Shown: one piece after another, positions 9,410 through 48,869 of the stretch
Numbering within the stretch: position 1 is the stretch's first letter
How the letters are laid out: the number at the start of each line of letters is the position of its first letter
Assembly (NCBI RefSeq): GCF_003334765.1
Contig: NZ_QOWT01000001.1
Origin: Escherichia coli
GTDB lineage: Bacteria > Pseudomonadota > Gammaproteobacteria > Enterobacterales > Enterobacteriaceae
Strand: one strand, 5' to 3'
Length of the DNA: 64,000 nucleotides
Notes under the pieces: model-generated
Told to the model about the DNA's origin: nothing
The model's database searches: none
The model's input: only the letters and a program-made list of their open reading frames with translations
Made by a program: the position numbers and the translations under genes

Positions 9410-9429
9410 TACTGTATAAAATCACAGTT
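9410..9429. promoter_or_regulatory. LexA box (SOS box) upstream of yebG
   Basis: TACTGTATAAAATCACAGTT, CTGT-N8-ACAG with consensus flanks, about 20 nt upstream of yebG start. Confidence 0.8.
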
Positions 9430-10486: not shown

Positions 10487-11146
10487 ATGGCTAACTGGTT
10501 AAATCAACTGCAATCCCTGCTTGGGCAAAGCAGTTCTTCTACCTCCTCGTCTGCGGATCAGGGATTGGTCAAACTGTTAGTGCCAGGCGCATTAGGCGGA
10601 CTGGCTGGGCTGCTGGTCGCAAATAAATCAGCACGTAAACTTCTTACGAAATATGGCACCAACGCGTTACTGGTTGGCGGCGGAGCGGTAGCGGGTACGG
10701 TGCTGTGGAATAAATACAAAGATAAAATTCGCGCGGCGCATCAGGACGAACCGCAGTTTGGCGCGCAAAGTACGCCGCTGGATGAGCGTACAGCACGTTT
10801 GATCCTTGCGCTGGTCTTTGCCGCTAAAAGTGATGGTCATATTGATGCCAAAGAACGTGCGGCAATCGACCAGCAATTGCGTGGAGCCGGCGTGGAAGAG
10901 CAGGGGCGTGTACTCATTGAGCAGGCAATCGAACAACCGCTGGATCCACAACGCCTGGCTACCGGGGTCCGCAATGAAGAAGAGGCGCTGGAAATCTATT
11001 TCCTGAGTTGCGCGGCTATTGATATTGACCATTTTATGGAACGCAGTTACCTGAATGCACTGGGTGACGCGCTGAAAATCCCCCAGGATGTTCGTGACGG
11101 CATTGAACGCGATCTCGAACAGCAAAAACGCACTTTGGCGGAATAA
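10487..11146 (+). CDS. yebE: DUF533 inner-membrane protein YebE
   Basis: ORF 219 aa ([38 protein letters not shown]...). Confidence 0.9.
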
Positions 11147-11327: not shown

Positions 11328-14074
<2,747 letters not shown>

Positions 14075-18531: not shown

Positions 18532-19971
18532 TCAGGCGTTACCGGTAAAAAGTTTCCCATCGCGCACCAGTTCACGCGGATAGCTGTTTTTCAATCGCGA
18601 ACCAATCCGTTTGGCTAAACCAATCGGTTGATGCTGGAAAGTAACCAATACATCATCCGCCACTGGCGCGGCTTGCGGGTAAACATCGCGCCCGCGATAC
18701 CACTCCTCCGCTTCCTGCGGTGTCAGCTCGAATGCATTCATATTATCGGGTGAGGCAAGAGCAATAACCGCTTCATGCTGCCAGCGATAACCTTTGTTGT
18801 GCGTCTCGGCAAGTTTAATCCCCAACCGAGAAAATCGGACTTTACCGATCAGGGCTTCAATGCCCACCGGGAACAACCACAGTTCTTTGTCACGCTGCCA
18901 GAGGCGCAGGTTTTCATCCCAGTTTAAGCCAACACCTGTAGCCGCCTGACGAATTTGTCCAGCTTCGCGATCTTTCACCGGGCTGAACGGAAAATTACCG
19001 ACTTTGTATTTGGGGGCGGGTAAGGCGGGAATCGCCTGAGTTTTACGCAGACGAGCAACGAAGAAGCCTTCGCAGTCGTAAATTTGTGGGAAAACATGCA
19101 AAAAGCCTTCTTCGGTCAGCGCTTTGTTTGCACCAGGGAAGAGATCGCCAAGTGGTAAAAACTCTACTGCGTCGGGGTAAGTCTCTTTCAGCCACAGGCA
19201 AACGGCTTCGTTTTCTTCCTGGTTTAAGGTACAGGTCGAGTAAACCAGCGTACCACCAGGACGTAATGCATGAAAGGCGCTGTCGATAAGCTCCCGTTGT
19301 GTAGCTGCGATTTCCTGATTGCTTTCTGGTGACCAGTTTTTTAGCGCATCGGGATCTTTACGCACCACGCCTTCGCCAGAGCAGGGAGCGTCCAGCAAAA
19401 TGGCATCGAACATTTCTGGCACTGCCGCACCAAACACGCGGCCATCAAAATGTGTGAGCGCAACATTACTGATACCACAGCGGCTGATATTGGCATGTAA
19501 CACTTTTACCCGACTGGCGGAAAACTCATTGGCAAGGATTGCCCCTTCGTTATTCATCCGCGCGGAAATTTGCGTCGTTTTGGAGCCAGGCGCGGCAGCG
19601 ACATCCATCACCCGCTGTGGTGCATTACCGTCAGCAAACAAGGCGGCAACAGGCAACATTGAACTGGCTTCCTGAATATAAAACAGGCCACTTAAATGCT
19701 CGGCGGTACTACCCAATGGCAATGCATCTTCATTGTCGCGTTCAATCCAGAAACCTTCTTCACACCACGGAATTGGCGTAAGCGTCCAGCCATAAGGAGC
19801 GGTTAATTGCAGGAAATCAGCAACGGAGATTTTCAGCGTATTAACGCGAATGCTGCGGCGCAACGGGCGCTGACAGGCGGCAAGAAAATCATCAAATGAG
19901 AGCGTCGAAGGCATCGCTTCGCGCATTTGTGTCAGAAAGGCGTCCGGGAAATAAACGGTGTGTTGGGCCAC
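18532..19971 (-). CDS. rsmF: 16S rRNA m5C1407 methyltransferase
   Basis: ORF-track 18532..19977 (481 aa); annotated-length 479 aa would start at GTG 19969-19971 ([12 protein letters not shown]...); NOL1/NOP2/Sun family. Confidence 0.88.
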
Positions 19972-20050: not shown

Positions 20051-22684
20051 TTATTTGGGAAGCGCAGTTCCCCATTCACGCCACTCTTTCGGTTCACTTT
20101 CCTGCAACAGGAAGTGTTTGCCTTCCTGGGCTTTCGGTGCCAGTGGCGTACCCGGAGGCGTGGCGAAGGCGATGCCGCCACGGATAAACTGGTTAAAGGT
20201 GCCGGTTTTCACTACGCCGCCCGTCAGACCAAAGTCCAGACTGTAACCCGATGCCAACCAGAAGACGGAATTGTTACGCACCAGGTGTTGATAGCGTTTA
20301 CTGATGCGCATCGCAATCATCACGCGATCTGACAATGTCCCCAGCGTCATTCCTGTAACCGTACCGACTTCCAGACCACGGAACAGCACAGGCGTACCGA
20401 TGCCTAACGAACCGGCTTCCGGCGCTTCAACAATAATGCTTAAGCCATCCAGGTAACGCGAATCAGTAATGGTGGCCTCTTGTAATTCAAAGTCGCGGCG
20501 AGGATTGCCCCGGCCTGGTTCGACGTTGATATACGGCTGGAGGATAGTATCAAGATGCTCAACGCCAGCTGCCGAAATTTGCGGTGTGACCACTGAGAAG
20601 CGCGTACCACCGCGAGCAAAGGTCTGGACATATTCCGGGTAAAGTACCGCCTTTGCCTGTACTTCATTGCGTGCGGTAATCAGATCCAGCGTCTGGATTT
20701 GCCCGATATCAATACCGAGATAGCGAATTGGCATCCCGACCGCCAGTTTTCCGGCATCGAAAGCGTGAAGCGTAATCTGCCCGCCAACCGCACGGGCCGC
20801 TGTTTCGGAAGCATACAGAATACGCTTATCGCCTTTACGCTGACTGGCGCTGGCACCGCTGAGGTTGTCGAAGCTAATGGCTCCCTTTAATGCTCTGGAG
20901 AGCGGGGATGCCTGTACGGTCAGACCACTACCATTCAGCTGAACTTTCGCCCCGCCTTCTGCCCAGAACACGCTATTGCTGGTCAGAAGGTTGCGATACT
21001 CCGGCTTAATATGCAGATCGATATCAAACGCGTTAGCTCGCGGACGCACGGTAATCACTTCACCAACTTCAAATTTACGGTACAGCACTACCGATCCTGC
21101 CTGCACATCCGGCAGCGTCTCTGCACTCAAACTCACGGTTGTGGTGGGTAAATCGCTAAGGCTGTTCTCCAGCGCTTTTTCCAAATTGGCATACAGTGGA
21201 TAGCTGGCTTTCATCTCACCTTTATCGCCCGGCAGAATACGTATCCCGCCATTGATCCATTCTGAGGCGCTGGCACCGAGAAACTCAACGCCATCCAGCC
21301 CCACCTTCACATCGACACGGCTGTTGACGACAAATTTGCTATCGCCTTTTACCAGTTCGCGATGCTGAGGCTCGATGGCGACGGTAAAGGTGACGCCTTT
21401 GCTGGTGAGTTTACGATCGATAACCTGGCCTACCTGCACGCCGTGAAGAATGAGCGGCTGACCCGCATCAATACCGTAACTTTCCGGCGCGGTCAGGGTC
21501 AGCGTCAGAACATCAGGTTCATGCAGCAGTGCTTTTTCGCCTGGCACAACAACGAACTCTTTGCGTGGCTCGCCATCGCCGGGCACCAGCTCGAAGGTTT
21601 TGCCGGTCAGCAGGGCGCTGAGATTAGCATCGCTAAGGGATAATTTCGGGTTGCGTAATTCGATGCGGGTATTTTCACGAAGCAGGGTAACGACGCTGGG
21701 ATCAACGGTCATTTCCCCTGTGACTTTACCACCAGGATTTAAATCCAGTTTAGTCAGCTGTCCGACTTCCAGCCCCTGATACATTAACGGCGTCGAGTCG
21801 GCGGTTAATCCGGCCCCACTCGGCAGTTCCAGTTTTATTATTACGCCACGCTGGCTGTGGGCCAGATCTTCATACAGACCAAAGGTATCTTCCGCCTCGG
21901 CAGGTTTCGACTCTTCTGGTGAATCGAAGGCAATCGCACCGTTAACCAGTGCCGCCAGGCTTTCCAGTTTCACCTTCGCGCCACTGATACTGACGTTGGC
22001 ATCAACGCCGGAAACGTTCCAGAAACGGCTACCTTTTTTCACCAGATCGGTAAAACGCCGCTCGATCAGGACATCAATCACCACGCCTTGCTTGTTGGGA
22101 TTGATGGCATAGTCGTAGACTTTTCCCACCGGGATCTTGCGGAAATAGACCAATGAACCGCTGTTCAGCGAACCGAGATCGGGGGCTTGCAGGTGGATCA
22201 TCAGATCGCCATTGTCCAGCCGATATTTCGGTTGGGTATCGAGTGCGACAAAGTGATCCTGCTCTTTACCTTTACCCGGCATCATGCCGATATAGTTCCC
22301 ACCGACGAGGGCGTCCAGCCCGGAGACACCTGCCAACGATGCTTTTGGCGTCACCAGCCAGAACTGAGTCTCTTCGCGCAGCGCATCTTTCATATCGGAC
22401 TTGATGCTGACCTTGACTTCAATCTTACGAAGATCGTCGCTGAGGCTGATATCCTGCACTGTTCCGACTTCAACGCCCTGATAACGAACAGGCGTACGGC
22501 CTGGAACAATACCATCCGCCGACATAAAGTCGATGGTGACGGTATTACCCCGGTCCTGATAACTGTCCCAAATCAGCCAACTGGCAATCATTAGCGCGAT
22601 GAACGGCAGCAGCCAGAAAGGTGAGATACGGCGTTTATTTTTAATCTGCGCTTCAGTCGTCGAAGCGGGCGTTTCCTGACTCAT
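20051..22684 (-). CDS. letB: MCE-domain lipophilic envelope-spanning tunnel protein LetB (YebT)
   Basis: ORF-track frame 20051..22726; start placed at ATG 22682-22684 ([28 protein letters not shown]...) giving 877 aa with multiple tandem MCE-like repeats. Confidence 0.9.
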
Positions 22685-46061: not shown

Positions 46062-46482
46062 ATTCTTATCCTTAAAATTAACCATGTTATCGATAAGGCT
46101 ATATATGACCTTAATTTGCATCTAATATCAAAGGGATTATAACGATATGGCACGAGTTAACCTGTTGACATTCAGGTGTTTTAAAGGTAGCAGCTCATGG
46201 TGTGTTATCCAGTAAGATGGAGAAATTTAACGGTCAGTCCGCACGCTATAACCAGATTGTTCAGCTAAGAAAGAAAACCAGAGTTGCTAATCAAAGGGCG
46301 AACACAACGGCATGTTTATGTTTATTTATATAGTTAGTTTTATAGATAAAATTGAAATTATAAATATAAATAATGAATTAGCAGAAGCATCAACAGTAAT
46401 ATCTTATTCTCTGGTCGATTTATGTAAAACCGACCAGTATTATCGATAAATTATCGTCTGACTTATTTTGCTTCGATAAAGC

Positions 46483-46827
46483 TTACACCGCAGCCACAAT
46501 CTTAATTTCAACTTTATACTTCGGGTTCATCAAACCCGCTTGTACCGTGCAGCGCACCGGCGCATGACCCGCGACAACCCAGGCATCCCACGCTTTATTC
46601 ATCGCCGCGAAGTCGTTTTTATCGGCCAGGAAAATGGTGGCATCCAGAATGCTCGATTTATTGCTGCCCTGTTTTTCCAGCACGGCGTCAATCTGTGCCA
46701 GCGTGTTGGCGGTTTGCTCAAAGGCATCGGCGTCGAGGTTTTCCGGTACACCAGTGTAGTAGAGCGTGTTGTTGTGGATTACTACATCAGACCAGCGGGC
46801 TTCAGCATCGATACGAACGATAGTCAT
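46483..46827 (-). CDS. yoaB: RidA/YjgF-family protein YoaB
   Basis: ORF-track frame 46483..46875; start placed at ATG 46825-46827 (MTIVRIDAEARWSDVVIHNNTLYYTGVPEN...) giving 114 aa. Confidence 0.85.
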   Translation of the reverse strand: MTIVRIDAEARWSDVVIHNNTLYYTGVPENLDADAFEQTANTLAQIDAVLEKQGSNKSSILDATIFLADKNDFAAMNKAWDAWVVAGHAPVRCTVQAGLMNPKYKVEIKIVAAV

Positions 46828-46932
46828 CATTTTGTCCTCATTATACTTCCATTTTCGTGCTGCAAAGACTGCCACAATGTGAGGTCGCCGTCACCACTTC
46901 AACTGGCGAAAGCGCCCTCATCCTGACATAAT

Positions 46933-46952
46933 CCCTGTTCAAATCAACAGGG
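46933..46952. promoter_or_regulatory. candidate LexA box overlapping yoaA RBS
   Basis: ccCTGTtcaaatcaACAGgg, CTGT-N8-ACAG core ending 9 nt before the yoaA GTG start. Confidence 0.5.
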
Positions 46953-46958
46953 GGTAGT

Positions 46959-48869
46959 GTGACGGACGATTTTGCACCAGACGGTCAGCTGGCGAAAGCG
47001 ATACCAGGCTTTAAGCCGCGAGAACCACAGCGACAGATGGCGGTAGCCGTCACCCAGGCGATAGAAAAAGGCCAGCCGCTGGTGGTGGAAGCAGGAACCG
47101 GTACGGGCAAAACCTACGCTTACCTGGCTCCTGCGCTGCGGGCGAAAAAGAAAGTCATTATCTCGACCGGCTCAAAAGCGTTGCAGGATCAGCTCTACAG
47201 CCGCGATTTGCCAACAGTCTCAAAGGCATTGAAATATACGGGCAACGTGGCGCTGCTGAAAGGGCGCTCAAACTACCTCTGCCTCGAACGTCTCGAACAG
47301 CAGGCGCTGGCGGGGGGCGATCTGCCGGTACAAATCTTAAGCGATGTGATCCTGCTGCGCTCCTGGTCTAATCAAACAGTCGATGGTGATATCAGCACCT
47401 GCGTCAGCGTGGCGGAAGATTCACAGGCGTGGCCGCTGGTCACCAGCACCAACGACAACTGTCTTGGCAGCGACTGCCCGATGTATAAAGATTGCTTTGT
47501 GGTCAAAGCACGTAAAAAAGCGATGGACGCCGATGTGGTGGTGGTAAACCATCATCTCTTTCTGGCGGATATGGTGGTTAAAGAGAGTGGATTTGGCGAA
47601 CTGATCCCGGAAGCGGACGTCATGATCTTCGACGAAGCCCACCAGCTACCGGACATTGCCAGCCAGTATTTTGGTCAGTCACTCTCCAGTCGACAACTGC
47701 TCGACCTGGCAAAAGACATCACCATCGCCTACCGCACCGAATTAAAAGACACCCAGCAGTTACAAAAGTGCGCTGATCGTCTTGCCCAGAGTGCGCAGGA
47801 TTTTCGTCTGCAACTCGGTGAGCCAGGTTATCGCGGTAACCTGCGTGAGCTGTTAGCTAATCCGCAAATTCAGCGGGCATTTTTACTGCTCGATGACACC
47901 CTGGAACTTTGTTATGACGTGGCGAAACTGTCACTGGGGCGTTCCGCCTTGCTGGATGCGGCATTTGAGCGCGCCACGTTGTATCGCACACGGCTGAAGC
48001 GGCTAAAAGAGATCAATCAGCCGGGCTACAGCTACTGGTACGAATGCACTTCGCGCCATTTTACTCTGGCTCTCACGCCGCTCAGCGTGGCGGATAAATT
48101 CAAAGAGTTAATGGCGCAAAAACCCGGTAGCTGGATCTTCACCTCAGCAACGCTGTCGGTGAACGACGATCTGCATCATTTCACCTCGCGGCTTGGCATC
48201 GAACAGGCCGAGTCGTTGCTGTTGCCCAGCCCATTTGATTACAGCCGCCAGGCGTTACTCTGTGTGCCGCGCAATCTGCCGCAAACCAACCAGCCAGGTT
48301 CTGCTCGCCAGTTAGCGGCAATGCTGCGACCGATCATCGAAGCTAACAACGGTCGTTGTTTTATGCTTTGTACCTCGCACGCCATGATGCGCGATCTGGC
48401 CGAGCAGTTCCGCGCTACCATGACGCTTCCTGTATTGTTGCAGGGGGAAACCAGCAAAGGGCAACTGTTGCAGCAATTTGTCAGCGCCGGTAATGCGCTT
48501 CTTGTGGCAACCAGCAGTTTCTGGGAAGGGGTGGACGTGCGTGGCGATACATTGTCATTGGTAATTATCGACAAATTGCCGTTTACCTCGCCGGATGATC
48601 CACTGTTAAAAGCGCGCATGGAAGATTGTCGTTTGCGCGGTGGCGACCCGTTCGATGAAGTGCAACTACCAGATGCCGTCATTACTCTCAAACAGGGGGT
48701 AGGGCGACTGATTCGCGACGCCGACGATCGTGGCGTGCTGGTGATTTGTGACAATCGGCTGGTGATGCGTCCTTACGGCGCGACGTTTCTCGCCAGTCTG
48801 CCGCCCGCGCCACGCACCCGTGACATTGCCCGTGCGGTTCGTTTCCTTGCGATACCATCCTCCAGGTAA
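46959..48869 (+). CDS. yoaA: DinG-family ATP-dependent DNA helicase YoaA
   Basis: GTG-initiated ORF 636 aa (MTDDFAPDGQLAKAIPGFKPREPQRQMAVAV...), Walker A AGTGTGKT, Fe-S Cys cluster, DEAH box. Confidence 0.92.
   Translation: MTDDFAPDGQLAKAIPGFKPREPQRQMAVAVTQAIEKGQPLVVEAGTGTGKTYAYLAPALRAKKKVIISTGSKALQDQLYSRDLPTVSKALKYTGNVALLKGRSNYLCLERLEQQALAGGDLPVQILSDVILLRSWSNQTVDGDISTCVSVAEDSQAWPLVTSTNDNCLGSDCPMYKDCFVVKARKKAMDADVVVVNHHLFLADMVVKESGFGELIPEADVMIFDEAHQLPDIASQYFGQSLSSRQLLDLAKDITIAYRTELKDTQQLQKCADRLAQSAQDFRLQLGEPGYRGNLRELLANPQIQRAFLLLDDTLELCYDVAKLSLGRSALLDAAFERATLYRTRLKRLKEINQPGYSYWYECTSRHFTLALTPLSVADKFKELMAQKPGSWIFTSATLSVNDDLHHFTSRLGIEQAESLLLPSPFDYSRQALLCVPRNLPQTNQPGSARQLAAMLRPIIEANNGRCFMLCTSHAMMRDLAEQFRATMTLPVLLQGETSKGQLLQQFVSAGNALLVATSSFWEGVDVRGDTLSLVIIDKLPFTSPDDPLLKARMEDCRLRGGDPFDEVQLPDAVITLKQGVGRLIRDADDRGVLVICDNRLVMRPYGATFLASLPPAPRTRDIARAVRFLAIPSSR

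Follow-up and report, generated by a model that had tools for sequence, protein, structure and literature searches.

A probable weak LexA operator at the predicted yoaA promoter of Escherichia coli, with a layout conserved across Enterobacteriaceae

The stretch of Escherichia coli DNA analysed here (the window, 64 kb in full) carries the divergent genes yoaB and yoaA, with the yoaB frame ending at 46827 and leaving an intergenic region of 131 bp. The surrounding interval, 46400-47400, matches 5425 of 5426 complete E. coli genomes, in which the annotation likewise consists of divergent yoaB and yoaA. Direct reading of the window gives ccCTGTtcaaatcaACAGgg immediately in front of yoaA (Table 1), and a pattern scan of all 64 kb returns its CTGT-N8-ACAG core; the palindrome that an earlier note on this DNA had described as resembling a LexA box is thus present, with arms of 7 bp (CCCTGTT/AACAGGG) around a 6-nt centre, longer than that note stated. 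Its spacing of 9 nt to the GTG start codon is correct when counted from the last G of ACAG, the full 20-mer leaving 6 nt in between, and its description of yoaA as a gene for a DinG-like Fe-S helicase agrees with the open reading frame and the RefSeq product name. AGGGGG is the only Shine-Dalgarno-like sequence in front of the gene and is overlapped by the 3' arm (CAGGG) of the palindrome.

Table 1. Observed and predicted features in front of yoaA, in window coordinates
Feature	Coordinates	Strand	Basis
Probable 20-bp LexA operator (SOS box) of yoaA, CC CTGT TCAAATCA ACAG GG	46933..46952	.	Sequence, heterology index, published mutation, conservation
Core CTGT-N8-ACAG, bases required by LexA	46935..46950	.	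One of two exact matches in the window, the other being the yebG box
Inferred extended -10 of yoaA, TGaCATAAT	46924..46932	+	Sequence inference; invariant in 79/79 Enterobacteriaceae loci, with alignment footprint
Candidate weak -35, TGGCGA, 17 bp upstream of CATAAT	46904..46909	+	Inference; TGG invariant, hexamer mean conservation 0.83
Predicted transcription start, 7-10 nt past the -10, within the operator	46939..46942	+	Inferred from standard -10/+1 spacing
Shine-Dalgarno-like AGGGGG, overlapping the operator 3' arm	46949..46954	+	Sequence
yoaA coding sequence, 636 aa, GTG start, DinG/XPD-family Fe-S helicase	46959..48869	+	Open reading frame; RefSeq 'DNA repair helicase YoaA'

Control of yoaA by LexA has a published history. 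A box was predicted by Courcelle 2001 and is given a heterology index (HI) of 13, as cited in PMC11228462, where yoaA is placed among the classical SOS genes and RNA-seq yielded a 4.0-fold induction by AZT and a lexA dependence of 1.6-fold. Sutera et al. 2021 (J Bacteriol 203:e00228-21; PMC8378479) fused the 132-bp intergenic region to luxCDABE and observed induction by AZT, most of which, the early phase above all, was removed by lexA3; replacement of the CTG(N)10CAG motif (N10 = TTCAAATCAA) resulted in constitutive high expression of yoaA::lux. The box of both studies is the same in sequence and place as the one described here, 24 nt upstream of yoaA's open reading frame, with no difference: the primer of Sutera 2021 agrees with the window at every base not changed by design, its position -24 corresponds to 46959 minus 46935, and the mutation covers 46933-46937 and 46948-46952 in window coordinates. 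LexA-dependent induction, which the earlier note had put forward as a check, has consequently been published for exactly this sequence, and the identification of the yoaA box as a LexA operator is correct but already known, having been predicted in 2001 and mutation-tested in 2021. Induction in a ciprofloxacin time course was rapid and small, and LexA regulation of yoaA is repeated in a 2025 review. The text of Sutera 2021 (PMC8378479) contains no EMSA, footprint or ChIP terms, and the literature search returned neither evidence of these kinds nor a mapped yoaA transcription start. Control of the yoaA leader by RyhB was set aside, the paper surfaced by the transcription-start search not being about that leader.

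A measure of similarity to known operators was obtained with an HI matrix built from 29 published E. coli LexA sites, among which the recA box alone was confirmed in print; the matrix was validated by the yebG site, found exactly in the window, and by its rank agreement with published indices (Spearman 0.94). The matrix assigns the yoaA box an HI of 12.33 on the + strand and 14.33 in reverse, worse than every training site even when each is left out in turn (maximum 12.2), the penalty being divided between flanks (6.26) and spacer (6.07), with zero contribution from core positions 3-6 and 15-18. By the rule quoted in PMC11002266, where LexA-binding sites have an HI <15, the box passes marginally by the value obtained here and by the published 13 alike; the index is not above the functional range, and together with the published induction this supports the LexA-box reading, neither of the two results that would have counted against it having occurred. 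Ten places in the 64 kb reach an HI equal to or better than that of the yoaA box, mostly within genes, and sites of HI 12 are expected at about 0.02 per 131-bp intergenic region, or approximately one over all intergenic DNA of the window. Exact CTGT-N8-ACAG matches number two against 0.70 expected, with two or more in 14 of 100 shuffles. An HI near 12 is therefore non-diagnostic and the sequence by itself is weak evidence for a yoaA operator; the case that the box is real is carried by its position, its conservation across species and the published experiments, rather than by the score alone.

Several other window sites illustrate the behaviour of the index. Dinucleotide shuffles lead one to expect 12.4 copies of the looser motif CTG-N10-CAG; the window has 28, a count reached by no shuffle, and this excess probably reflects abundant CTG and CAG codons rather than LexA sites. 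LexA-like 20-mers that outscore the yoaA box (HI 10.3-11.7) lie at 10493-10512, 10776-10795 (yebE), 21731-21750 (yebT), 33744-33763 (rlmA), 12523-12542 (ptrB) and 19217-19236 (rsmF); all are intragenic and are probably chance matches, showing the low specificity of the index at this level. Upstream of yoaC, the AT-rich 20-mers at 46195-46214 and 46316-46335 score about 12.2 in the absence of CTG..CAG (having CTG..CAT and ATG..TAG), and are likely artefacts of composition. The LexA box reported in front of yebG is confirmed as TACTGTATAAAATCACAGTT at 9410-9429, and yebG, exoX and holE are all present in the window as claimed; the accompanying remark that the window is rich in DNA-damage genes holds for gene content but is merely descriptive, a credible LexA box being found only at yebG and yoaA, whereas for exoX and holE none was found in the window, the nearby CTG-N10-CAG matches falling within coding sequence.

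Conservation was assessed by a scan of species-representative genomes, from which the closest 80 of 557 relatives were taken (more than 20 genera, all Enterobacteriaceae), 79 of those 80 yoaA loci having enough upstream DNA for comparison of the box. Among these closest relatives, an invariant TGACATAAT is followed by CTG-N10-CAG in 79 of 79 loci, with an offset of 2 nt in 77 and 3 nt in the other 2, the box itself starting 1 nt past TGACATAAT in 77 of the 79. The same 79 loci hold 23 distinct boxes, in which CTG and CAG never vary and the spacer is free: positions 7, 8, 10, 13 and 14 each accept three or four bases, while position 6 is restricted to T or G and position 15 to A or C, the same alternatives as in bona fide LexA boxes. 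C1, A9 and G20 are also invariant, the bases at positions 1 and 20 not being those that LexA prefers, and across the set the lowest HI is 7.3 (Enterobacter soli) and the highest 14.5 (Salmonella arizonae). In the alignments, CTGACATAATC together with CTG and CAG is the best-conserved stretch, against an intergenic mean column conservation of about 0.6; within E. coli, 5000 of the 5424 matching genomes carry the 60-nt module of promoter and operator without a difference. Fixed half-sites at a fixed spacing around a free middle are the pattern expected of a protein operator.

Conservation on the coding side of the box is looser. CAGGGGG is retained in most genera, Enterobacter having CAGTGAGAGAG, and the start codon follows the box at 8 nt in the majority of genera, at 12-13 nt in the Enterobacter group and, in a single genus, at 47 nt, although several of the longer distances vanish if translation really begins at an upstream in-frame GTG. 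The earlier description of the palindrome as overlapping the ribosome-binding site thus stands for E. coli, where the 3' arm lies on AGGGGG, but not as the main anchor of the box, given the varying distance to the aligned start codon; the overlap is secondary rather than absent, because so much of that variation depends on which GTG is used. On the pattern of sequence conservation, the box is anchored less to the ribosome-binding site than to the putative -10 and the predicted transcription start. In-frame inserts of 24-30 nt between the box-proximal GTG and the aligned start were observed in Atlantibacter and relatives (loci L073, L074, L076 and L079) and in loci L022, L025 and L026, at about 1430-1510 in each locus, the Atlantibacter insert repeating GTGACGGAC; YoaA of these loci may have a short N-terminal extension, or the start may be duplicated. 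No box of the set scores worse than that of Salmonella enterica subsp. arizonae (locus L013), CCCTGTGCAAATTAACAGGG (HI 14.5), Enterobacter boxes scoring 7.3-10, and the published inventory of 48 Salmonella SOS loci does not include yoaA (PMC8072944); Salmonella may have weakened or lost LexA control of this gene.

The element adjoining the box upstream, TGaCATAAT, resembles an extended -10, and the candidate -35, TGGCGA, matches TTGACA at 3 of 6 positions. Consensus sigma-70 and terminator scans of 46700-47100 found nothing, the sigma-70 scan requiring a good -35, so the promoter call rests on the conserved extended -10. With the box beginning 1 nt after this element, the predicted start would fall within the box, and the leader would be 17-20 nt long. 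It is very probable that 46933-46952 serves the yoaA promoter as its LexA operator and that the repression model proposed here is, as a whole, correct. In this model, a LexA dimer would bind the CTGT-N8-ACAG core and, in doing so, cover the -10-proximal and predicted +1 region, blocking binding or initiation by RNA polymerase. Occlusion of this region by LexA is a feature of many SOS promoters. Upon DNA damage, RecA filaments would stimulate LexA self-cleavage, the operator would be vacated, and yoaA would be transcribed.

The operator is a weak one (HI of approximately 12-13), since a perfect core is set within poor flanks (CC/GG) and a poor spacer, and this weakness fits the modest induction reported. 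Its cause is likely to be the double service of C1, G19 and G20, which also form part of the promoter edge and of the ribosome-binding G-run. A caveat attaches to the published box mutation, which also changes bases beside the -10 and near +1; a promoter effect could therefore account for some of the mutant's high expression. Further counterpoints to the LexA operator are the lexA dependence of only 1.6-fold in RNA-seq, the persistence of some AZT induction in lexA3, the omission of yoaA from the Salmonella SOS list and the low specificity of an HI at this level.

Placed among known LexA operators, the yoaA box has close counterparts. The paralogous helicase gene dinG is, like yoaA, repressed by LexA via a single operator near the start codon. 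A TTGG half-site makes the dinG box asymmetric (TATTGGCTGTTTATACAGTA), and this operator is reportedly the subject of a study by Lewis and Mount in 1992. The yoaA box differs in being symmetric in its core, and dinG has the better score (8.6; PMC11228462). Another likeness is the polB (dinA) operator, GACTGTATAAAACCACAGCC, which shares with yoaA a perfect CTGT/ACAG core, G/C-rich flanks and a poor spacer; both have a published HI of 13, with similarly modest inductions of 4.7-fold for polB and 4.0-fold for yoaA (PMC11228462), although the yoaA spacer is further from the TA-rich consensus (T7, C8, C13) and its lexA dependence is 1.6-fold against 3.1-fold for polB. The yebG operator has in common with that of yoaA an exact CTGT-N8-ACAG and a location about 20-25 nt before the start codon, but is near consensus (HI 4.0 here, 6.3 published), with a lexA dependence of 9.7-fold (PMC11228462).

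Three other explanations of the palindrome were weighed against the LexA operator. That it is a chance occurrence with no regulatory function can practically be dismissed: the abundance in the window of sites scoring 12.3 (ten), of CTG-N10-CAG (28) and of shuffles with at least two exact matches (14 of 100) would permit such a reading, but the position and the CTG/CAG half-sites are invariant in 79 genomes of the closest 80 of 557 relatives while the spacer diverges, and the published box mutation derepresses while lexA3 blocks early induction (PMC8378479); conservation and the Sutera 2021 results together led to its rejection. Hardly more credible is a hairpin in the yoaA leader that would hide the ribosome-binding site, acting in translational control or mRNA stabilisation instead of, or besides, LexA. 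In isolation, the 20-mer can form a stem of 7 bp capped by a loop of 6 nt (-8.6 kcal/mol, z = -3.7), the 3' arm of which overlaps the AGGGGG Shine-Dalgarno sequence, but the fold is ordinary in a 48-nt context (z = -0.56), and with the predicted start lying within the 5' arm the transcript would lack that arm, RNA from 46939 being unstructured (-4.1 kcal/mol, z = +1.9). Outside CTG and CAG, moreover, pairing between the arms is not preserved, most genera having symmetry at only 4-5 of 8 outer positions and T6 opposite C15 being common, and the published derepressed mutant GTCCCTTCAAATCAAGGGAC retains a 7-bp stem of -8.9 kcal/mol, which indicates that structure alone does not repress. Rfam gave no family within 46700-47100 at E <= 1. 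Sequestration by a leader hairpin was accordingly rejected on the unconserved outer stem, the equal stability of the derepressed mutant and the unstructured predicted transcript.

More room exists for a second, LexA-independent regulator or mechanism at or near the operator that would drive a late, growth-phase-dependent induction persisting in lexA3, an explanation that is nonetheless improbable. Induction of yoaA is biphasic, and at 180 min expression in lexA3 is 6-fold induced and stands at about 30% of the wild-type level, for which the authors suggest that LexA repression is lifted in some unknown manner (PMC8378479); in the ciprofloxacin study, yoaA expression falls after 50 min, unlike most SOS genes, from which its authors infer extra regulation; and C1, A9 and G20 are invariant although the bases at positions 1 and 20 are not those that LexA prefers. 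Such a mechanism has some room in view of these invariant non-consensus flanks and of a late induction seen in lexA3 but missing from the box mutant, and there is a slim chance that a competing factor, or displacement of intact LexA, relieves repression at the yoaA operator as cells near starvation. The adjoining -10 and the ribosome-binding G-run, however, offer a simpler account of C1 and G19-G20, no motif of a second regulator was recognised at the operator, sspA dependence of yoaA is only 1.2-fold (PMC11228462), and a weak operator may just respond to a falling LexA3 concentration in late growth.

YoaA, with the clamp-loader subunit chi (HolC), clears blocked 3' ends at replication gaps, and its excess is toxic, for which reason control of yoaA matters for the balance between repair and replication. 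Within this setting, the yoaA box appears as an ordinary weak member of the LexA-operator family, and its recovery serves mainly as a positive control for the sequence scan, membership of yoaA in the SOS response via this box already being in the literature. The additions made here are modest, comprising cross-genus conservation, promoter context and an argument against a hairpin; the useful ones are that the promoter-operator module is fixed across Enterobacteriaceae and that bases held in common with the -10 edge and the ribosome-binding site can account for the weakness of the box.

The region between yoaB and yoaA also holds a second block of strong conservation, made up of 46863-46879 (CAAAGACTGCCACAATG) and 46889-46894 (CGTCAC), with AAGACTGCCA nearly invariant across genera. 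This block may be the yoaB promoter, its minus strand reading GTGACG-17 nt-TGgCAGTCT, or a second yoaA promoter, with TGcCACAAT on the plus strand; it may also be the site of an upstream factor. A sigma-54 promoter was considered and rejected, the GG-to-GC spacing being two bases short by eye. In Kluyvera, an insertion of about 75 nt separates the second block from yoaB, and the yoaA -10 still lies about 45 nt away from the block. In one E. coli O2:H16 genome (NZ_CP176406.1), an IS1A insertion splits yoaB, beside the yoaA promoter region.
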